Shown: positions 7,425 to 61,262 of the stretch, in pieces | Layout of the letters: every line of letters begins with the position of its first letter | Numbering within the stretch: the first letter of the stretch is position 1 | Origin: a virus | Taxonomy: Duplodnaviria; Caudoviricetes | Virus record (IMG/VR): IMGVR_UViG_3300035498_000371 | Location: 160,001 to 224,000 of that record | Direction: 5' to 3' (one strand) | DNA length: 64,000 nucleotides | The notes under the pieces: model-generated | Seen by the model: the letters and a program-made list of their open reading frames with translations, nothing else | What the model was told of the DNA's origin: nothing | Database searches by the model: none | Program-made: the position numbers and the translations under genes

Positions 7425-10400
7425 ATGCTTTATTTAGAAGACTTGAAGTATATGAAGCTCTACAAAAAGAAGTTTTATGCTCCAATAAATAAGAAGAATA
7501 AGAAGACCGGCTCAGCAATATTATTGCTGACGCCTAATTATGATGCTTCTAAGTTTCTTATGAATAATCCATTCATGATAAACCGTAACGCATTTATATC
7601 ATACTATATTGAAAAGGATATAACGTATACTATAAATCATGAGTCTAAATATCTTGAGATATCTTATCATGATGCTGATACCATAGCACTTAATGAGCAA
7701 GCTGTTTATACAGAATCTACAGATGTTCAAGTTATATCTGAAATGGAAGAAGATTATACTATCAATGAATTGTATTGCAAGCTTGGAGATTCTATGATAT
7801 TCTTCAATGAGTTATATGACGAAACCATTCTTAATGAGAAAGGTGCTTATGCAGAGAAGTACCGTAAGCTGTTATATTACGATCGTATAAGAAATAATCG
7901 TGATGTATTACAGCTCTATAAGAAGATTAAAGAAGATAATCCATGGATAAAGAAAACTTTTATTGATTATAAGAGATATAAGTCTTTCAATCTATTCATA
8001 GATCTTTATTATTACAATCAGATATACCTAGCTAATAACAATTACACTATAATTAAATCAATAGATATGTATTTGGAATTCATTCGTAGATTCCTTACAG
8101 ATAAGAGGATAGATACCGCTGGGTATACGAAGAAGACTATATTCATTCCAGTGAACTTCTGGGGTAAGAAGCCTGGAACTATGGTTTACGATTATAAGAA
8201 TAATTTAAATCCCATATCAATAATCTATAAGAAGCTTAGACTATCTATAGAAGATCTTCATGCTCTTGATGGATTAGAAATGGTATTCTTTGGAAATAAT
8301 GGTTATTTCAAATTCAAGACAGATGATGTAACAAAACAAACTCATACTAAGTTCTTAAGATTCATTAAAGCTCTTGAGGATAATGAGACTATAGATGATT
8401 CAGATGAACCAGATAATTCTCCAGATGGAATTACTACTGAGATTATAGATAAGCTTGACACTAATCGAGGTATTAAAATTCATAATCTTACTGGAAATGC
8501 AGAATCTGAAGAAGAGCAGGAACAACTTAAAGCAGAATTAGTAAAGAGGATAAGCGATGCTTCTAAGACTGCTGCTAACGAAGATGATGTTCTTGATAAT
8601 CTGGAGAATGATGAGTTTGTAAAGAAAGTTATTTCTGACCTTGGAGATGATGCAGAGGATAATATAAAAATATCTGCTGCAAGAGCAACAAGAATTACTA
8701 AAGCTCAAGATAACTTCATGAAGAAGTCTATCAATAATAAATCAGTTAAAGATATGGTTAATGAGTCTAATAAACCAGAAGAATTACCAGAGACTGAATT
8801 ACCGATAGAGACTATAAACGAAGAGTGGAAGCATATGAAAGCTATAAACTTCGAGAAAGAATATGATCTTGACGCTGATATCATCAAGATTCTTAATAGC
8901 CTTAGCGATACCAATAAAGAATATCCAGTATCCATTCTTGATGTAAAGATGGAAGACACGTCTACATCTGAGGATAGTATTTATACTTACACTGTAAAAT
9001 GCGAGGACTATTCTGGTAAAAGATTTACTCTTAAATTTGATATTCCTAAATTTAGGGATAATAGATTTATGAGGCTACGTGGTAATGAGAAGATATTCTC
9101 TATAGAGATGCCTCTTATACCAATATCAAAGACTGATGAAGATACTGTACAGATTGTATCATTCTATAACAAGATCTTTATAGAAAGATATAATACATCT
9201 ACTGGCAAATCTAACCCTGATGCTGCAAGATTTATTAAAGCAATGAATAAATATTCTGGTTCGGATATTAAAGTCAGCGTCGGAGATAATACAAGAATCT
9301 GTAGCAAGTATGAACTACCAATAGATTATGTAGATTTAGCATCAATGTATTCTAAAATTGAATACTCTGCTAAAGGCGGTTTACTCAAAGATAGATTTAC
9401 AATATATTTCAACCAAGATGAATTGAGGAAAGATATTAAGAATCTCAATGAATCTGAAGGTTTGCCAGTTGGTTTGTATAACGATGGTAGAGTAATCTAT
9501 TATGTAGCTAACGAGGATAATACATTTGCTAGCTTCATTAGTGTATTGCTTGGAGATGATTTCTATGAATCATTCAGGTCTCAAGCTAAACCTAAGAAAT
9601 GTACTTACTCAAGAGCAAGTATATTAAATACCAATATCCCTGTAATTACTATACTAGCTCATGACCTTGGCTTAACCAAAGCTATGGATATTGCTGGTAT
9701 AGATTATGATATATCTGAGAAGAGGACGCCTAGAAGTGATGAAGATGATACAATAAAACTCGCTGATGGATTTATCCATTATAAATCAACTTACACTTCT
9801 ATGATGCTTATGAATGGTCTTAAGGATTGTAATATGGAAGACGTTCAAATAACCGAATTAAACTCTAAGATTACTTGGGTTAATATATTGGAGAATTTTG
9901 GTGGTAGAATCAAGTCTGATGGTTTAACAAACTTTAAAGATCTTATGTACGACCCAATTACAGTAGAAGTATCTAGAGATTATAAACTCCCAGATAATTA
10001 CCATGATGCTTTAGTATATGCATCAAATCTCTTAGTGGATAATAAGTTCACAACTCATACTGATATCAGTACTAATAGATATCGTACAAACGAAGTTGTT
10101 GCTGCGCAGTTCTATAGAGTTCTTTCTGATTCATATAAAGAATATGCTCTACAAAATAAGCATGGTCGTAAAGTACCGATGTCTATGAAGCAGTCTGCTG
10201 TAATTGATCTTATTCTTGCACAGAACACTACATCTGATTTATCTGTATTCCAACCATTATTGGAGATTGAAACAAAAAATACGATATCAACCAAGGGTGT
10301 TACTGGAATGAACTCAGAAAGAGCATATAAGATTGATAAGCGTGGTTATGATGATTCGATGGTTAATGTTATAGCTCAGGCTACAGGTTTTGCATCGACC

Positions 10401-52244: not shown

Positions 52245-52469
52245 TTATTCAATTGCCTGAAGCATTTTGATTCTCTCAACTTGCTCAGGCGTATATTCGC
52301 AAAGCGATTTTAACGCATTTGCGTTTATGATTACATCTCTTGAAAATAGCATATCTGAATTGCATCTGCCATCATTTCGAGATATAAACATCCGTCTTGG
52401 CGATAGCACATTATTTGCTATCCTAATAAAGTCCTGATTATACAGGTAGAGAATATTTAAAGTATCTCC
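52245..52469 (-). CDS. RNAP beta' N-terminal subunit, exon 3
   Basis: Starts GGA GAT (GDTLNIL), completing ADFD|GD; later LSPRRM. Confidence 0.9.
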   Translation of the reverse strand, partial: GDTLNILYLYNQDFIRIANNVLSPRRMFISRNDGRCNSDMLFSRDVIINANALKSLCEYTPEQVERIKMLQAIE

Positions 52470-52923
52470 CAACTCATTCACTAGGGTCGTTAATCCTAGC
52501 AGTTCTCTTATGAACTTCTTCGGTTTTTCTCCGAATGTTTAGATCATATCTTCATCCTTAGCTTTACCTATTAGGATGCCTTCCACTTCGATTTAAAGGA
52601 TTTTCACCTACTCACTTGAGCCCTACTCCTGTTGCGCTTATTTTTTATGCTGCTTGAGCGCCCTCCCACGGGGATGATCGTTGAACTTTATTTTAGTATA
52701 ATTTATTTATACTAAAACCTTAGATGCTGATTGTACATTGTTAATAGGCCTTAGCACCAATTATTTTACAATTGGCTTTTATTTCAGCATAGCCCATCTC
52801 TGTACTTTGTTTCTATCTTTCGATTCTCATGTATAATAATGAGCACCAGAGCATTAGTACTTCCCAGCAATTCAAAAGGAAAGCTCGCACTATATTATCT
52901 ATAATACGAGGACAGATTTGTTT
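52470..52923 (-). ncRNA. Group I intron (ORF-less, 454 nt) inside the catalytic ADFDGD motif
   Basis: Exon ends in U (GAT), intron ends in G; P7 GAUCAU/AUGAUC; removal restores ADFDGD in frame. Confidence 0.92.
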
Positions 52924-53301
52924 ATCGAAATCTGCAGCTAATATCTTTAATATGAGCAATGATACAGACATTGTATAATCCATATTAATACCCACAACAT
53001 GAACCGCTAATACGCCGCCATACGATATGGTCGGATTTCTATTTATCAGTACCGGTAGTCCATTTTCTGAATCTTTGATTAAACCATCTATAATATCATA
53101 GACAGCCTGATCATTACCTGTAATCTGTGCTTTAAACCACTTCTTATATGCTTCTGCATAAGTAATATTATAACTTCTTACGAGTATATTTATAATTACC
53201 TGCTGAAGCAATTCACATAATCCATGGAATGGTAATTTTACCTGATCGCATTGAAGCGATACATCTTGCTTAATAACAGATCTGCTACTAAATGCATACC
53301 T
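52924..53301 (-). CDS. RNAP beta' N-terminal subunit, exon 2
   Basis: RYAFSSRSVI...LINRNPTI...AADFD (126 codons). Confidence 0.9.
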
Positions 53302-53754
53302 CGGTTTCTTCACATAGGTCGTTAATCTATGCAGTTCTCTTATGAACTTCTTCGGTTTTTCTCCGAATGTCGAGACTATATCTTCATCCTTAGCTTTACC
53401 TATTAGGATGCTTAACCACTTCGATTTAAAGGATTCTCACCTACTCACTTGAGCCCTACTCCTATAGACGAATTTCACGTCCCATATGGGGATAGTCGTT
53501 GAACTTTATCTCTGCATGAATATATTTAAATCATACTTATGAGATCTTAGCTGCTGATTATACATTGTTAATAGACCTTAGCACTAAGTATGTATGATAT
53601 TATACTTAGCTTTTATTTCAGCATAGCCCATCTCTGTACTTTGTTTCTATCTTTCGATTCTTATATTTCTATAAGCTCCAGAGCATTAGCACTTCCCAGC
53701 AATTCAATTAAGTTTAATTCTCAATATTCCTATTGAAAATGGGCTAATCATATA
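53302..53754 (-). ncRNA. Group I intron (ORF-less, 453 nt)
   Basis: P1 GGGU|UA...UAGCCC with U-G at the splice site; P7 GACUAU/AUAGUC; terminal G; joins AIGG|RYAF. Confidence 0.92.
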
Positions 53755-54747
53755 ACCCCCTATAGCAGATCTTATATCGCCTCTTTTCTTAGCAAGCATC
53801 TCTTTAATTTCAAGATAGACGCTATTTAACTGATACTGAATATCATAGAGAATGCTAAGTTTCTCTTTCTTTTTGTTATCCATACGAAGCTTATCTTTGT
53901 TGCATCTATAAACAAGATTAGCAAGCATATTAAACTGCTCATTACAAGCCTCATACTTCAATGAACCATCATCGATTCTAGATGGTCTTAACAGACTGGA
54001 ATATACAGAAATGGTATGCGTAAATGTGATAGGTCTCATAGCCATAAGATCATCATAATATAATTTTTTCTGCGGATATTTAGATAGATAGAACGCTAAA
54101 ATTTCCTCATACCTTTCCTTAAATTCCATTAATCCAATTCCCTTAAACGGTTCATCTTTTTTTGTCGATATCGTAGGAATAATAGCTCCATTAGAATCTA
54201 CATCAACTATAGGTTCAATAATCCTATTAAGCCTAGCAGCTCCTATAAAGCCTTCGAGGGTACGATAAATATTAGGGTGAATGATCCAATATTTGTCTTT
54301 AAGAACAAGATAACCAGTGATGGAAATATCATCACCTACATATCTAACTCTAGATTCACATACGTCACACCATTCACCATGGTTAATAGACCCTCTCTTG
54401 ATACCACAATTGCAACGATACAATCCATTAAATGAATCTACATCGGTAATTGAGTTTGAACCATAACGATAAGAATAAATACCATCCTGGTTCTTGATGT
54501 CTTTCTTGATACCTCTTGGAGCAGAGATTATAAATCCCTTACCAGATTTGATATCATCGGCTCTTCTCTGATCAAGATTGATTCGATTCAGATAAGTCTG
54601 AAACTCATAATCGTCGCTGTATGGATACGTTAGTACGATATTCATACTATCTTCTTCTAACGCTTCTTTACCAGCGGTATAGATGGGCGCCGAATTACCC
54701 TGACGCTCAGCTTGCGTCTTAGGTAACATTTTGTTGCTATCATCCAT
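53755..54747 (-). CDS. RNAP beta' N-terminal subunit, exon 1 (spliced product 531 aa; probably non-virion RNAP)
   Basis: Zn-binding YRCNCG...CDVC, LRPS, KRGDIRSAIGG. Confidence 0.9.
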
Positions 54748-55401: not shown

Positions 55402-55905
55402 TTATGAAGTATATAATTGTATTTCTCCAGATGATAGAGTTGCTTTAACATCTATAACTCTCTGATTTGTGCTGCCAGCCCATTTATATTTTTGATCTAA
55501 TAATTCTTTTACAAATGGACCATCAACTACAACATCGCATAATTCAACGATTTCTCGACGTTTATCATTTTGCTGAATTGATTCCCATGTATATCCTGTA
55601 TAGAGCCATATGGTCTTTTCAGGATATGCGGTTCGTACTAATGAGACAAGAAATTTAATGCCATCAAGATTGAATTCATGAAGCGGGTCGCCTCCAGAGA
55701 ATGTTATGCCGTCTATATAGTCATTATTTAAGCACTCTAATATCTCATCCAACGCATCAGTGTCAAATTTAACTCCTGAGTTCGGATCATGGGTCTGAGG
55801 GTTATGACATTCTGGGCAATTATGAGTGCAGCCAGATACAAATAATACTACTCTCAGCCCATCTCCATTTCTCATATCCTCATGCATTATCGTATGATAA
55901 TTCAT
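55402..55905 (-). CDS. nrdG: Anaerobic RNR activating enzyme
   Basis: NGDGLRVVLFVSGCTHNCPECHN, FSGGDP, YTGY, VDGPF, GSTNQR. Confidence 0.95.
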   Translation of the reverse strand: MNYHTIMHEDMRNGDGLRVVLFVSGCTHNCPECHNPQTHDPNSGVKFDTDALDEILECLNNDYIDGITFSGGDPLHEFNLDGIKFLVSLVRTAYPEKTIWLYTGYTWESIQQNDKRREIVELCDVVVDGPFVKELLDQKYKWAGSTNQRVIDVKATLSSGEIQLYTS

Positions 55906-55922
55906 AATACTATCACCTGCCT

Positions 55923-56288
55923 TTATGTGTATGATCTGGAAATTCTCTCTATACAATCTGCTGGAGAACTCCCATCCCATAAAGGAGCTCTTTCGAGCTC
56001 CTTACATTTAAATTTATCCCAGTATTCCATTTGATAATGGTAAGTTGCTTGTCCTTCAGGAGTACTGATGCCTACAATGAAATATCCATCATACATGCTT
56101 CCATCGCTATGCTGTTTAGATTTCCAGGAGTTGGCGCTATAAACGTTTACTAACGCTGCAAATAGAACCATTCTATGATAATATAATTCTTTGAAAGTAT
56201 GATCTCCATCTGATACATTATCAAAATTGTCTTGAGTTTTCATTATATGGATATTTCTATCCATCAAAGTTTGATCTACCATATTCAC
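55923..56288 (-). CDS. WDGH-like phage protein
   Basis: SDGDHTFKELYYHR, WKSKQH, GQATYHY, PLWDG. Confidence 0.65.
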   Translation of the reverse strand: MNMVDQTLMDRNIHIMKTQDNFDNVSDGDHTFKELYYHRMVLFAALVNVYSANSWKSKQHSDGSMYDGYFIVGISTPEGQATYHYQMEYWDKFKCKELERAPLWDGSSPADCIERISRSYT

Positions 56289-56306: not shown

Positions 56307-57170
56307 TTACATAGATACTCTTTCTGATATTTCTGCTAACTTACCTTCATTGTACCTGCTCTTATTCTTGATTCTGGTATATCCGATATAGCCATTCATT
56401 CTGTCTATAATGGTTAGATTAGTACTACCACATTTAGGGCATACTTTCATCTCTACCTGTTCATGACCGCAGTCTTCGCAATAGCAAAGCTCAAGATTAC
56501 AACCTTCGTAGAAACCATAACGCATCGCTCTTCTAACAATAGTCTTCTGAGCTTTAGCATTGTAATCAATCGGATAACGACAGTATTGAATTTTACCGCC
56601 ATTAAACAAATCCCAGAATCTACGTTCATAATCCTGTTTCTGAATAGGGGTAATATTCTCCCACACACCACAATGGAACGAATTAGACATATATGCATGA
56701 TCTGTAACTCCTTCTACATCGCCAAACATATCTCTGAACTGGGTAACCTGTAAGGAACATAATTGTTCTCCAGGTGTAGCATAGGTAGCGTATAGAACGC
56801 CATCTTCTTTTTTAAACTGCTCTTCTTTCTTGTTTATATATTCCATTACTTCTAATGCAAACTGCCCATCTTCTATAATAGATTTTCCATTATATAATTG
56901 CTGCAATTCATTTAAACCTACTATACCAAATGAAACAGTCATTGGTTTGAGAAGATCTTTAATCTTTTCATCGGCTTTTAAATGACCGCCAAGACATCCG
57001 CCCTGCATAAACATCATTGGATTTGTACTGGCAACTTTATTGCCAAAATAATCTATAGTTTTAAGATGTAATTTTCTAATAAGCTCCAAATAATAATCAA
57101 GAACTTCATAGAAATCTTTTCCTTCTTTTCTTGCTTTAGCAAGAATCATTGATAAGTGTAGAGAAATTGC
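56307..57170 (-). CDS. nrdD: Class III ribonucleotide reductase, exon 3
   Basis: AISLHL, YATPGE, SNSFH, CEDC...CPKC, glycyl-radical loop RMNGYIG. Confidence 0.93.
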   Translation of the reverse strand, partial: AISLHLSMILAKARKEGKDFYEVLDYYLELIRKLHLKTIDYFGNKVASTNPMMFMQGGCLGGHLKADEKIKDLLKPMTVSFGIVGLNELQQLYNGKSIIEDGQFALEVMEYINKKEEQFKKEDGVLYATYATPGEQLCSLQVTQFRDMFGDVEGVTDHAYMSNSFHCGVWENITPIQKQDYERRFWDLFNGGKIQYCRYPIDYNAKAQKTIVRRAMRYGFYEGCNLELCYCEDCGHEQVEMKVCPKCGSTNLTIIDRMNGYIGYTRIKNKSRYNEGKLAEISERVSM

Positions 57171-58152
57171 CTGAATTAACAATTTCAACAGACTATATCA
57201 TATGCTGTTATAACTTATGTATACCATATCTTATAGCAGACACCCTCGCGCTTCCCCAAATGCAATTAAGCAACCAAAGAATTTCGTCTTTGTGGTACTT
57301 TACTCTGTTACTGGGGATTATTTCTCAATAATCCTTACCATTTCAATAGTCGTTTGACTTCCTTGAATTATTGTATAATTATATCTATCGTATTCAGATC
57401 TTTTTCTAATTCCAGATATTGCGTTATGTTTAATCATATATTCTGGAGCGCCTATATCTATCAAAAAATCTTTTATAGAATCATAGATTTTATAAATACC
57501 AGTTTCTGAATCATATATTCTTATTCGTTTTGGATTTCCTCCAATAAAGTTACCATTTAATATAGCGCTATGTATATTTTCTTTTTGTGTAACCTGCCTT
57601 AAATTTGATATATGATTATTTGACGGATTTGCATCTATATGATCAATTACGAGGCCTTGAGATAATGGCTCTTCTCCCCATGCACTATAAACTAATCTAT
57701 GTACAGAATGATGTATTTTATCTGGACCTTATATTCTTCTATAACCTCCAGGAAGAAGTTCTTGTTTCATTAAGAATATTTTCTTTATAGTTATATTATC
57801 ATCGTCATAATATGCTTGTGTTATTTGTCCATCCATACTAGCATAATAATTATCAAGATAAGTTGATCTGAATATTTTTCCATTAATTGTAAATTGTCTT
57901 CTTACGATATAAATATTATTCATTGGTCGATACCTCCTTCATAGCTTAAAATACTGTTACCGACCATATATAATTCAAGTTTAGCACAGGATTGTTATTA
58001 TAGCTACACTTAAACTATAATAGTTTCCCCTGTTAGCACACTTATTAAATAACCATTTCCTGTTATATACTGAACGTTAAGCGCACACCCTAGATTTCTA
58101 GGTTCACGAGGTTTTCATCTACGTATCACTACGCAGCGGGGCACATATTTCT
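57171..58152 (-). mobile_element. Group I intron (982 nt) carrying an HNH gene
   Basis: P1 GGGU|A...UGCCC; R AAGUCAAACGACUAU; S GAUAUAGUCUG; terminal G; joins FNLG|AISL. Confidence 0.92.
57318..57923 (-). pseudogene. Intron-encoded HNH homing endonuclease with one in-frame TAA (57729-57731)
   Basis: AAGGAGG SD; the same frame resumes with VHRLV...VIDHIDANPSNNHISNLRQVTQKEN and stops at 57318. Confidence 0.85.
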
Positions 58153-58248
58153 ACCCAAATTGAATCTTCCTTCATATACAGGATAATCATCTTTATCTGC
58201 TGGTTCCATACCTCCACGTACATACCATGGAGATAAAGATGCTCTACA
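58153..58248 (-). CDS. nrdD: Class III RNR, 96-nt exon 2
   Basis: CRASLSPWYVRGGMEPADKDDYPVYEGRFNLG; not called in this frame by the ORF track. Confidence 0.92.
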
Positions 58249-58646
58249 CAACTCGTATGAATATTTCTATTCTGGTTAACGAGCCTGACTATATCTTCGC
58301 TCCGGTAGCTCACACCATCAACACGCTTCGCACTTCGCTACAGTGTATCTCTGCAGCTACGATACTCTCTTCGTGCAATATAAAATTGCCTTATTCTTTA
58401 TTAAAAATAAAGTTACATTTATTGATTTTTCTAGTCGATTGACTTTCCATTATTCATTATTATAATTAATCAGCCAATAATTATAATACCAAACAATAGC
58501 TTAGCACAGGATTGACTTCAACTTTACTTGGTCAGCTTTCCCTGTTAGCACACTTATTAAATAACCATTTCCTGTTATAAACTTTAGCGTTAAGCGCACA
58601 CCCGTTTACAAGACGGTTCACGAAGTTTTACATGAGCAATAGTTTT
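58249..58646 (-). ncRNA. Group I intron (ORF-less, 398 nt) in the MG|CR active-site motif
   Basis: P1 AUGGGU/GCUCAU; R AAGUCAAUCGACUAG; S AAGAUAUAGUCAG; terminal G. Confidence 0.92.
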
Positions 58647-59831
58647 ACCCATTAAGCTTATAGGAGTTTTATATTTCTTATACATGGAAGGAATATACCC
58701 CTCCCCCGTTAGACTGATATAGTCCGGATACATGGTCTTTCTACTACACTCTAGCGCCAAATCGAATAAATATTCGAATTCTTTTCCTTCACCATGTAAT
58801 TCTTCATTATAGAAGAATGATAATTTAGGGAATAATACAGGTTTTTTGAATCCTTCTTTACCCTGACCTTCCATACGAACCTTAAGAATCGATTCAATTG
58901 CAATGATGCCAAATTTAGAAGTGTCTAATCCAAAACTACATGCAATGAATGGATAATCGCCTCTAGAAGATCCTACAGTATTGAATCTCATTTCCCATGA
59001 TTGGAAGCCTTGTTCCATATCTCTTCTAACTTTCTTGGTAGCATATATATCTGCCGATTCTTCATTGTAAATGCCACCGCAATCTTCTACGATATTCTTA
59101 TATTCGTCAAGATATTTATTGTAACTCTTTTCTGCATATGGAACCACAAGACTATCGACTCTTGGAATTGTAAATCCGCCATACTGTTGAGATGCAGTAG
59201 ATAAAGTTACATCACTTACCACATCAAATAATACATCCAATGTTTTTGGCTCGTTATACCAAACATTACCCATTTCAAATCCGCCAGTAACAATACCATG
59301 GATATCAGCGAGACAACAGTTCAGGCCATCGAGTCTATCCTTCATATCATGAATATAAATATACCCATCGTTAGCAGCCTGTAATTCTTCTTTATTTAAG
59401 AAGAATTTTCTATATAACTCTTTATTGAGTTTTCCATAAATTAATGATCTCTGAGTTGAGATCATAGAGCTATCAGTATTGGCATTTGATACATCTCCTA
59501 TATATCTAATACTTTGAGATTTCTGGTATACTGAATCTAGCATAGCGCAAAAATCTGTTTTATAATTTCTGTAATCCCTATAACTTTTGCTAATCTCTGG
59601 ATCTATCTTATCCAGCGCCAATTCAGCAAATATATGCATTTGGGCAATTGGTATTTTACCATCATTATCGTCAGCGTATTCTTTTGCCATAGAACTTACT
59701 GATTGCTCAATAAAACTAACTTCATCATCTGTTAGCTTATGCATACACCTTCCTGCAGATTTTCCGACAGCGACAACGACTTTATTGATATCAAAGTCTT
59801 GCTCAGTACCATCTTTTTTGATTACAACCAT
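58647..59831 (-). CDS. nrdD: Class III RNR, exon 1 (spliced product 714 aa)
   Basis: ATP cone VIKKDG, YIYIHD, NCCL, QQYGG, FPKL, YPD, SLMG. Confidence 0.93.
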
Positions 59832-60044
59832 ATATCTTTACCTCCTTAAAATATAATTAAAATTTAGTTCTGGATTATTGACTTGTTGAGGTGAATTGCA
59901 TATCTTGATATAAAATGTATTTTATCTTACCATTTTAATTTATTGCTTATATAAAGAGAAACACTATAAAATAAAGCATTATGCTTAAATTTTATGGCGA
60001 AAGACATGTAAATAATTCTAATTAATTTAAGGAGGCGTAGAAAT

Positions 60045-61262
60045 ATGAGCAAAGTAAGAAAAGCAAGAGTTATAGATAATCCTAAAGACGTTCAAGAGAT
60101 CGTTAATATTTCTTATGAAGAAGCATGTGAGAAAGATATCGTTATGAGATACTTTGGAAACTTTGGGAAGGGCTCTAGATTCAACCCATATGATATTATC
60201 GTTATACCGAAAGGTAAGTATGGTAAAACAAAGAAAAACAAAAATGAATTCACAACCACAGTTGGGTTGTGGATATTTAATAAGTCTTTCATTGAACCGT
60301 TTTCCGATATTATCGGCTATATTAATGAGCCTGTTACAGCAGACAAATATGAAGAGATTAACCAGGAGCTTTCATATGCTAGATTAGAGGATAAGATTTC
60401 TCTAGAAGATCTTAAGAATTTTATAGTTCAGTCTCAGATTCTTATGAGTTGCTGTTCGGCAATAGCTCCATCTCATACAGAGATTATGTTTAGCATGAAT
60501 ACAGATATAGATAGGAAGAAGAGAGAATTAGAGAAGAAGTATGAAAAAGAGTTAGCAGCAAAAGATCTTAATGCTGCTAAAGCAATGGAAGATGAATTAA
60601 TAGACTATGCTAAGGATTTAATGAAAGATGATCCTGCAGTAGATATGTTTAATTCTGGAGCTCGTTCCTCTTGGGGAAACAATTTCAAGAATATGTATGT
60701 ATGCCGTGGACCAATTCATCTTACAGATGGCTCATATGATATTGTAACTTCATCTTACATGGATGGGCTAGATCCAAAAGATTTTGCTAAAGTAAATGAT
60801 GCAGCTGTTGGTGGTCCATATTCTAGATCAAGAAAGACCCAAGATGGTGGTTATAAAGAGAAACAGTTTACAAATGCTACTCAGCATATTAAAGTTCTTC
60901 CTGCAGGTAGCGATTGTGGCACTAAGAGATATATTAACGTTACTCTTACTAATAAGAATATTAAAGATTGGATGTACTGTTTTGTAATCGGCAATAACGG
61001 AAATCTTACAGAAATTACATCAGAAAACAAAGATAAATTTATTGGTAAGACTGTAAAGATGAGATTCTCCAGCATGTGCGCCAATAAGAAAGATGGAGCT
61101 ATATGTGAAAAATGTATGGGCTCATTATACAACCGTATTGGTATTACCAATGTGGGTTTAGGTACAATGATAATGATGAGCCAGACCAAAAATGCCGCCA
61201 TGCGGCGCTTCCACGATTCGAGTCTTAAACTTAACTCATTAGACCCAGATGACATATTCTAA
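60045..61262 (+). CDS. RNAP beta' C-terminal subunit (probably virion RNAP)
   Basis: SGARSS, RGP, SYMDGL, bridge helix KTQDGGY, DCGT, RFSSMC..ICEKCMG, trigger-loop MRRFH; promoter at 60003-60015. Confidence 0.88.
   Translation: MSKVRKARVIDNPKDVQEIVNISYEEACEKDIVMRYFGNFGKGSRFNPYDIIVIPKGKYGKTKKNKNEFTTTVGLWIFNKSFIEPFSDIIGYINEPVTADKYEEINQELSYARLEDKISLEDLKNFIVQSQILMSCCSAIAPSHTEIMFSMNTDIDRKKRELEKKYEKELAAKDLNAAKAMEDELIDYAKDLMKDDPAVDMFNSGARSSWGNNFKNMYVCRGPIHLTDGSYDIVTSSYMDGLDPKDFAKVNDAAVGGPYSRSRKTQDGGYKEKQFTNATQHIKVLPAGSDCGTKRYINVTLTNKNIKDWMYCFVIGNNGNLTEITSENKDKFIGKTVKMRFSSMCANKKDGAICEKCMGSLYNRIGITNVGLGTMIMMSQTKNAAMRRFHDSSLKLNSLDPDDIF

Follow-up and report, generated by a model that had tools for sequence, protein, structure and literature searches.

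Two probable group I introns without open reading frames, members of a multicopy family, in the beta′ gene of a phage non-virion RNA polymerase

A gene in three exons

We examined a 64,000-nt stretch of viral DNA (hereafter the window), which comprises bases 160001–224000 of the 238,843-bp IMG/VR virus record IMGVR_UViG_3300035498_000371 (~76% complete). On its minus strand, between positions 52,245 and 54,747, three open reading frames (ORFs) follow one another with two intervening sequences between them. We consider it likely that this stretch is one gene made of three exons and two ORF-less, IA2-like group I introns, and that the introns come from a recombining family present in at least six copies in this genome (Table 1). 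Judged from its sequence, the gene is the N-terminal half of the β′ subunit of a non-virion multisubunit RNA polymerase (nvRNAP) of the AR9/PBS1 type.

The ATG of exon 1 is preceded by a Shine–Dalgarno sequence, AAGGAGG (54762–54756, minus strand). Exon 2 matched the Pfam family PF00623 (RNA_pol_Rpb1_2) with an E-value of 9.6e-8; it corresponds to Rpb1 domain 2 and carries the first two Asp residues of the Mg-binding triad. The third Asp of the DFDGD motif lies in exon 3, together with the C-terminus of the β′ N-terminal half. In the PHROG profile phrog_2987 ('RNA polymerase beta subunit'), exon 1 occupied positions 47–290 and exon 2 positions 293–420, and the closest solved structure for exon 2 was the AR9 nvRNAP β′ subunit (7S00/7S01 chain d; E 1e-15). 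By tblastn, the gene grouped with g270 of AR9/PBS1, which carries the annotation nvRNAP β′ N-terminus, and also with the corresponding genes of staphylococcal, Listeria and Yersinia jumbo phages; exon 3 alone gave no tblastn matches among isolate phages. We observed that all the hallmarks of an AR9-type β′ N-terminal half, namely Rpb1 domain 2, the NRxPT segment and the (N)ADFDGD motif, are present in this gene, and that the predicted spliced product stops soon after the DPBB/catalytic loop, 74 amino acids past DFD↓GD, the same as AR9 g270 (here and below, arrows mark insertion points).

Only the doubly spliced mRNA would encode a 531-amino-acid protein having both an intact NRNPT segment and an intact DFDGD Mg-binding loop. 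This supports, at the level of the predicted product, an earlier suggestion that both splicing events are needed: an intact β′ N-terminal half would require the removal of both introns.

Intron boundaries

We searched viral contigs with exon 1 and obtained nine related loci (L011–L019). In six of these, which are intron-less orthologues (L012–L016 and L019; 40–88% amino acid identity), the equivalents of the exons abut to the base. The empty site 2 of L015 matches the flanks over 20 nt (12 + 8) with no insert, and the positions of the phrog_2987 profile run on across junction 1. From the orthologues and the continuity of the profile, we concluded that precise excision of the two introns restores a conserved, continuous reading frame. 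The sibling contig L011 (99% identical) has both introns, intron 1 at 99.1% and intron 2 at 97.8% identity.

A preliminary description of this stretch had predicted the junctions GGGGGT↓AGGTAT and TTCGAT↓GGAGAT, and the six intron-less orthologues bore these out at the codon level. The intron coordinates given there, and the lengths of 453 and 454 nt, were exact, and one of the introns does split the catalytic DFD↓GD, as had been proposed. For both introns, a U closes the 5′ exon and a G closes the intron. A shifted junction that would still encode DFDGD is excluded because of the nucleotides at the intron ends. For intron 2, we also considered shifting the splice junction so as to place a canonical U·G within an 8-bp helix described below; reasoning from the sequence, none of these alternatives yields DFDGD in frame. 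No free-standing sense-strand ORF of at least 40 amino acids was found within intron 1 or intron 2, and neither of them encodes a recognizable homing endonuclease (HNH, GIY-YIG, LAGLIDADG and the like). Their description as ORF-less was thus borne out.

If the interruptions were left unspliced, the three ORFs would be the remains of a decaying pseudogene or would be translated as separate pieces. Such an interpretation could draw on the fact that we infer the splicing of both introns, and on the annotation of Staphylococcus phage Machias, which treats the equivalent interrupted gene as a short coding sequence (CDS). However, neither exon 2 nor exon 3 has a credible start or ribosome site, the exon boundaries agree with those of the intron-less orthologues to the codon, and what lies between the exons shows the conservation and covariation of group I ribozymes (see below). 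Separation of DFD from GD would, moreover, destroy the Mg site. We regard a pseudogene, or a set of gene fragments, as extremely improbable, and treat the stretch in what follows as a single gene with two introns.

Ribozyme core

Against the full Rfam model RF00028 (Intron_gpI), intron 1 scored 32.5 bits (E 8e-6) and intron 2 scored 24.9 bits (E 1.5e-3), with P1 to P9 in order in both cases. When Rfam was run on the whole window at the gathering threshold, no matches were obtained, and the introns surfaced only with E-value filters. The shortfall arises mainly because the insertions of ~100 nt in P5 and ~70 nt in P7.1/P7.2 are counted as inserts by the model. Two shorter relatives from the same family, L070b and L070d, clear the RF00028 cut-off (53.3 and 51.9 bits, respectively), and therefore the Rfam membership of introns 1 and 2 rests on homology. 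Rfam matches to mir-1302, snoR35 and the TMV pseudoknot were rejected as chance; the one to mir-1302 falls on the AT-rich hairpin P6 in intron 2.

Covariation was assessed on an alignment of 21 ORF-less members of the family, with P7 added as a pseudoknot. RNAalifold gave the helices P2, P3, P4, P5, P5a, P5b, a P7.x hairpin, P9, P9.1 and P9.2. Over the 21 sequences, 96.8% of the cells were paired, as compared with 30–43% when the partners were slid. Changes on both sides were observed in 42 of the 62 pairs, and none of 500 shuffles reached the observed values. The core helices P3–P9, including the P3/P7 pseudoknot, are therefore supported by covariation, and the omega G as well as the guanosine-binding G-C pair in P7 are present in both introns. 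Between intron 1 and intron 2 themselves, compensated differences were found in P3, P7 and P9.2. Covariation was used in place of the minimum free energy (MFE), for which intron 2 had a z-score of −4.2.

Between P7 and P3′, there are ~70–85 nt with several hairpins, one of which (helix 9) covaries. Their DNA similarity to introns found in staphylococcal phages of the K-like and Twort-like groups is 72–76%. From this kinship and from the hairpins of the P7.1/P7.2 type, we describe both introns as IA2-like, a designation that stops short of a formal subgroup assignment.

In the mechanism that we envisage, each intron would fold into a P3–P9 core with the P3/P7 pseudoknot, and the conserved G-C pair in P7 would bind free guanosine. 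Cleavage would follow the exon U that is paired with G11 of the guide; the terminal G of the intron would then dock in the guanosine pocket and the exons would be ligated.

P1 and the internal guides

For intron 1, the MFE fold of the exon and the 5′ end of the intron is a canonical P1, GGGU↓UA...UAGCCC, in which the helix formed by the guide (Table 1) is extended by the pairs U1-A10 and A2-U9; the U at the end of the 5′ exon and its U·G wobble are both in place. Throughout the family, the guide G lies at about intron nt 11, and the usual guide is GCC(C), which faces an exon ending in (G)GGU; in most cases this end is a conserved Gly codon.

The P1 of intron 2 is the one real anomaly. Beside its probable guide, the sequence UCU (52916–52914) could pair with GGA of the 3′ exon as P10, and UCUGUC contiguously matches the ligated exons, GAU↓GGA. 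A competing 8-bp helix can form between exon positions 52935–52928 (−12 to −5) and intron positions 52919–52912 (+5 to +12). The MFE structure and all the near-optimal folds of the 5′ junction of intron 2 prefer this helix, which places the U of the splice site within a loop of 8 nt. The two introns had earlier been described as having different P1/guide sequences, each matched to its own site. The guides indeed differ and fit their sites, but the canonical P1 of intron 2 has only 3 bp, against the 8 bp of the competing helix.

One conceivable alternative is that self-splicing of intron 2 does not proceed through a canonical P1. Either the 8-bp helix would then be a regulatory trap, making splicing, and with it the production of the nvRNAP, conditional on a chaperone, a helicase or the transit of ribosomes, or intron 2 would be a crippled copy that splices poorly. 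The near-optimal folds with the splice-site U in a loop and the mere three exon pairs of the canonical option point in this direction, and a comparable competing hairpin is seen for the intron that L018 has in this motif. On the other hand, intron 2 is retained at 97.8% identity in the sibling phage, in a gene that is essential, the core of intron 2 is fully compensated, and its contiguous 3 + 3 guide lies at the position typical of the family. The repetition of GAU codons in DFDGD accounts in part for the competing helix. We consider a trap or a crippled copy unlikely.

Recurrent exchange of base pairs in P7

P7 had been reported to be GACUAU/AUAGUC in intron 1 and GAUCAU/AUGAUC in intron 2, and we found these sequences at the positions that had been given (Table 1). 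The difference is a swap of the third and fourth pairs, from C-G and U-A to U-A and C-G. All four substitutions are transitions, so that pyrimidines on the 5′ strand and purines on the 3′ strand are kept, and each of the swapped pairs can cross via a G·U intermediate. A half-changed P7 was not seen among the introns compared. In all 21 aligned introns, the first pair of P7 (the guanosine-binding G-C) and the next A-U are unchanged, and P7 is 100% paired.

Of the 21 aligned introns, 5 have the variant P7; on a tree built without the P7 columns, its distribution over six carriers requires five changes. When viral contigs were scanned for the variant 5′ strand, at least 11 further introns turned up in which the 3′ strand was exactly compensated. 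Both states of P7 were also found at one shared homing site (...LLRG↓). The preliminary description had pointed to a double compensatory change in a helix that is normally close to invariant. Two compensated pairs do differ; a reading of the change as a special event is nevertheless not supported: the swap recurs five times and spares the guanosine-binding G-C.

We also considered whether the variant P7 serves as an insulation marker, occurring once per multi-intron gene. As a general rule, this was rejected: L022, L025 and L032 each have three canonical introns, and the rule is also broken by L110, which has two variant-P7 introns ~1 kb apart.

The intron family and the origin of the pair

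At least six copies of the family, introns 1 and 2 included, are present in this 239-kb phage genome (Table 1). The core identity was 79.9% between introns 1 and 2, 80.6% between intron 1 and the topoisomerase copy, and 82.8% between intron 1 and L032b. The latter is one of two extra ORF-less DNA polymerase introns (L032a and L032b) found in another sibling contig, L032 (IMGVR_UViG_3300043102_000019), the exons of which are 98–99% identical. Intron presence varies, then, between phage strains that are 98–99% identical.

The tree without the P7 columns had the topology (intron 2,(intron 1,L032b)) with support values of 85/93, and an extended P8 occurs only in these three introns. In our first tree, intron 2 had paired with L058b; this pairing was due to convergence in P7 and was gone after the P7 columns were dropped.

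Identity along the introns is mosaic. Across P7–P7.1, intron 1 is the same as the topoisomerase copy (100%), whereas introns 1 and 2 are 67% identical there; over the last ~100 columns, intron 1 equals L032b. The topoisomerase and polymerase introns, in turn, have common segments of 54/55 and 27/27 nt. A further patch was observed in the P9.2 stem-loop of intron 2, which shows six clustered, fully compensatory differences from the 98–99% identical copy in L011, and it is the L011 copy that bears the intron-1/family form. This patch suggests gene conversion between the intron copies. The long identical blocks shared by introns 1 and 2 would therefore represent the family-conserved core and conversion tracts.

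The two introns had been presented as near-identical twins that arose by transposition within the gene. 'Near-identical' is too strong for an identity of 79.9% over the core, and the identical blocks are conserved family-wide. The notion of twins and of intragenic transposition is likewise unsupported: the genome has at least six copies, intron 1 is nearer to L032b and to the topoisomerase intron, and the sisterhood of introns 1 and 2 is neither shown nor rejected. A check proposed at the same time, namely whether relatives at the same site in distant phages are closer to each intron than the two are to one another, did not go against the pairing; the L018 intron in the same motif is only 64–67% identical to introns 1 and 2.

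The strongest form of the duplication model would be that one intron was duplicated within the β′ gene and acquired a new target through changes in P1 and in its guide, and that the double change in P7 came later and was private to one copy. The nearest relative of intron 2 overall is indeed intron 1, the two form a clade with L032b marked by the exclusive extended P8, and a constraint making introns 1 and 2 sisters was not rejected (approximately unbiased test, p 0.55). Their exon-binding guides, GCCC and GUCC, are one base apart and occupy the same intron position. Intron 1, however, is nearer to L032b and to the topoisomerase intron of its own genome than to intron 2, the nearest relatives differ from segment to segment, and an identity of 80% indicates an old split. 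As the variant P7 is also found elsewhere, at different sites and in different phages, it could have come by recombination. One duplication event within the gene is possible, but it is not the best description of the data, and in the strong form given above we find it rather doubtful.

We favour instead the origin of both introns from the recombining family. Its copies sit at conserved motifs, mostly after a Gly GGU codon that matches the GCC(C) guide, and would swap segments via recombination or gene conversion. Candidate routes by which ORF-less copies might reach new sites would be recombination during co-infection, endonucleases acting in trans, and reverse splicing. A more speculative scheme, to which we give little credence, is that the ORF-less members spread by reverse splicing with a guide of 3–4 nt (GCC(C) for the Gly codon in (G)GGU, and a one-base change to GUC for the Asp codon GAU), which would explain five hits in 15 nt of (A)DFDGD. 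In the same scheme, the two-state P7 (CU/AG versus UC/GA) would be a neutral or an insulating toggle, limiting the mispairing of sibling introns in one pre-mRNA.

Insertions into the catalytic motif and comparison with known systems

In the nvRNAP β′ N-terminal genes of different phages, we found five insertion points within ~15 nt of the catalytic motif (Table 1). The genes of BpSp, MarsHill and LPJP1 are uninterrupted. Among the loci examined, only this phage and the sibling contig L011 had an intron at site 1 (AIGG↓RY). In Machias, positions ~2170–2540 of L122 hold an unannotated ORF-less group I intron of ~360 nt, after which the exon resumes with YDGDTLNII; the GenBank CDS ends early, at ...AGMGYKGSLSL followed by a stop. 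The locus L058 (1782–2692 of IMGVR_UViG_3300045594_000116, minus strand) has two family introns separated by an exon of ~135 nt, one with the canonical and one with the variant P7.

The closest known case is g270 of phage AR9 (KU878088). This is the orthologous gene (36% amino acid identity in exon 2), it has a group I intron inside the same catalytic motif, and exon 3 of the present gene aligns to exon 2 of g270. The g270 intron shows the same J8/7 motifs and, like intron 1, the P7 GACUAU/AUAGUC and a canonical P1, with a GCC guide after a GGU codon. It differs in carrying an HNH ORF, the homing endonuclease gene g271, the annotation giving g270 as a join; the introns here are ORF-less. Moreover, g270 has one intron as against two, the insertion lies 3 nt further downstream (DYDG↓D versus ADFD↓GD), the cores are ~62% identical, and AR9 has no intron at the site equivalent to AIGG↓RY.

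A second parallel is orf142 of phage Twort. It has three introns, I1–I3, two of which are highly similar IA2 ribozymes, and exon skipping was shown there, according to what PMC10136302 relates of Landthaler & Shub (1999). The Twort gene resembles ours in having several ORF-less group I introns in one phage gene of an intron-rich genome. The host gene is different, though, and the exon between the similar introns is 23 nt long, as against 378 nt for exon 2 here, the comparison being one of descriptions only.

In the jumbo phage PhiPA3, a multisubunit RNA polymerase gene (gp210) is likewise interrupted by a group I intron, right after conserved aspartates of the catalytic region (Birkholz et al. 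2024, PMC11620839). That intron lies in the gene of the β subunit of the virion RNA polymerase (vRNAP), in a member of the Chimalliviridae, and encodes an active nicking HNH endonuclease with a demonstrated role in phage competition (PMC11620839). The statement that introns are known in jumbo-phage RNA polymerase genes is therefore correct for AR9 g270 and for the PhiPA3 vRNAP β gene (PMC11620839). We found no record of an intron in an RNA polymerase gene of phiKZ itself, which had been named as an example. Introns placed at the catalytic residues of essential phage genes are the rule (PMC12908238). The present pair fits this known pattern, and an intron in this very motif was already annotated in AR9.

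Neighbouring genes and other intron clusters

The gene nrdD (anaerobic ribonucleotide reductase) of the same window is split as well; the gap (57189–58589, minus strand) lies between ORFs at 58590–59831 and 56307–57188. It holds the group I P7 motifs AACGACUAU at 57354 and GAUAUAGUCU at 57199. No intron was detected in this gap with Rfam (E ≤ 0.1) or with the profile hidden Markov model of the family, the intron being too divergent for the profile. An ORF of the NrdG activase type, with the CxxxCxxC radical-SAM motif, adjoins the split nrdD (55402–55980, minus strand). Among related viral contigs, L022, L025/L034, L056, L064 and L070 have three to five family introns within 3–6 kb, and several of these introns are at one common homing site, after ...SATNKAKAASLLRG↓.

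Table 1. Parts of the split gene, copies of the intron family and insertion points in the catalytic motif. Unlabelled positions are those of the window; L numbers are viral contig loci and G000 is the record of this phage.
Feature	Position	Strand	Details
Exon 1, nvRNAP β′ N-terminal-half gene	53755–54747	-	331 codons; ATG at 54747; ends ...RSAIGG, final nucleotide U
Intron 1	53302–53754	-	453 nt; ORF-less group I; phase 0; at AIGG↓RY; last base G (53302)
Intron 1 internal guide GCCC	53741–53744	-	intron nt 11–14; pairs exon GGGU; U(−1)·G11 at splice site
Intron 1 P7, 5′ strand (GACUAU)	53492–53497	-	partner 53374–53379
Intron 1 P7, 3′ strand (AUAGUC)	53374–53379	-	partner 53492–53497
Exon 2	52924–53301	-	126 whole codons; RYAFSSRSVI...LINRNPTISYGG...LAADFD
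Intron 2	52470–52923	-	454 nt; ORF-less group I; phase 0; at ADFD↓GD; last base G (52470)
Intron 2 probable guide G11 U12 C13	52911–52913	-	would pair exon GAU with U(−1)·G11
Intron 2 P7, 5′ strand (GAUCAU)	52674–52679	-	partner 52542–52547
Intron 2 P7, 3′ strand (AUGAUC)	52542–52547	-	partner 52674–52679
Intron 2 P9.2 stem-loop (GCUAGG...CCUAGU)	52482–52498	-	sibling copy L011 7250–7266
Exon 3	52245–52469	-	74 codons and TAA; GDTLNILYLYN...
Family intron, topoisomerase II/GyrB-like gene	G000 8682–9097	+	at RYKGLG↓EM
Family intron, DNA polymerase B	G000 59658–60200		
Family intron, gene at ..SEYD↓KYEA..	G000 86701–87919	+	273-aa HNH-type ORF
Family intron, second β′-like gene (..MGADYDGDQV..)	G000 95660–96901	-	after ..IISRYP; 262-aa HNH-type ORF; outside the window
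Extra introns of L032	L032 2978–3376 and 5661–6064		sites empty in G000 at 56312 and 58594–58596
Motif insertion, Staphylococcus phage Machias	MW349128 (L122)		MG↓ADYDGD
Motif insertion, L058	L058		AAD↓FDGD; second intron at LINRN↓PT
Motif insertion, L018	L018		one nt later than that of L058
Motif insertion, this phage			ADFD↓GD
Motif insertion, AR9			DYDG↓D

Discussion

The data presented above favour a single nvRNAP gene with two group I introns drawn from a recombining family. Several observations weigh against this. Both introns remain under the 50-bit gathering score of RF00028, and the MFE z-score of intron 1 was −1.25, an uninformative value; for a ribozyme with a pseudoknot, MFE makes a poor test. 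The IA2-like label, as said, is not a formal subgroup assignment, and splicing is predicted from the sequence. The canonical P1 of intron 2 would consist of three exon pairs (G-C, A-U and U·G) and a mismatched extension; efficient self-splicing of this intron would be less certain than that of intron 1, and a chaperone or a conformational switch may be involved. As to their origin, the sisterhood of the two introns was not rejected by the constraint test, and recombination blurs any intron tree.

None of these findings overturns the current understanding of such introns, and their value lies in the dynamics of the family and in the odd P1 of intron 2 rather than in the existence of the pair. 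For annotation, the gene looks like three orphan ORFs and is liable to be missed or to be called a pseudogene. For the phage, production of the nvRNAP would depend on two ribozyme reactions, one of them inside the Mg-binding loop. Because exon 2 preserves the reading frame, a transcript from which it was skipped would still be read in frame but would give an inactive product. Taken together, a recombining family, copies that vary between strains, five insertion points in one motif and a recurrent two-state P7 would offer material for studying the movement and co-evolution of group I introns that lack an endonuclease.

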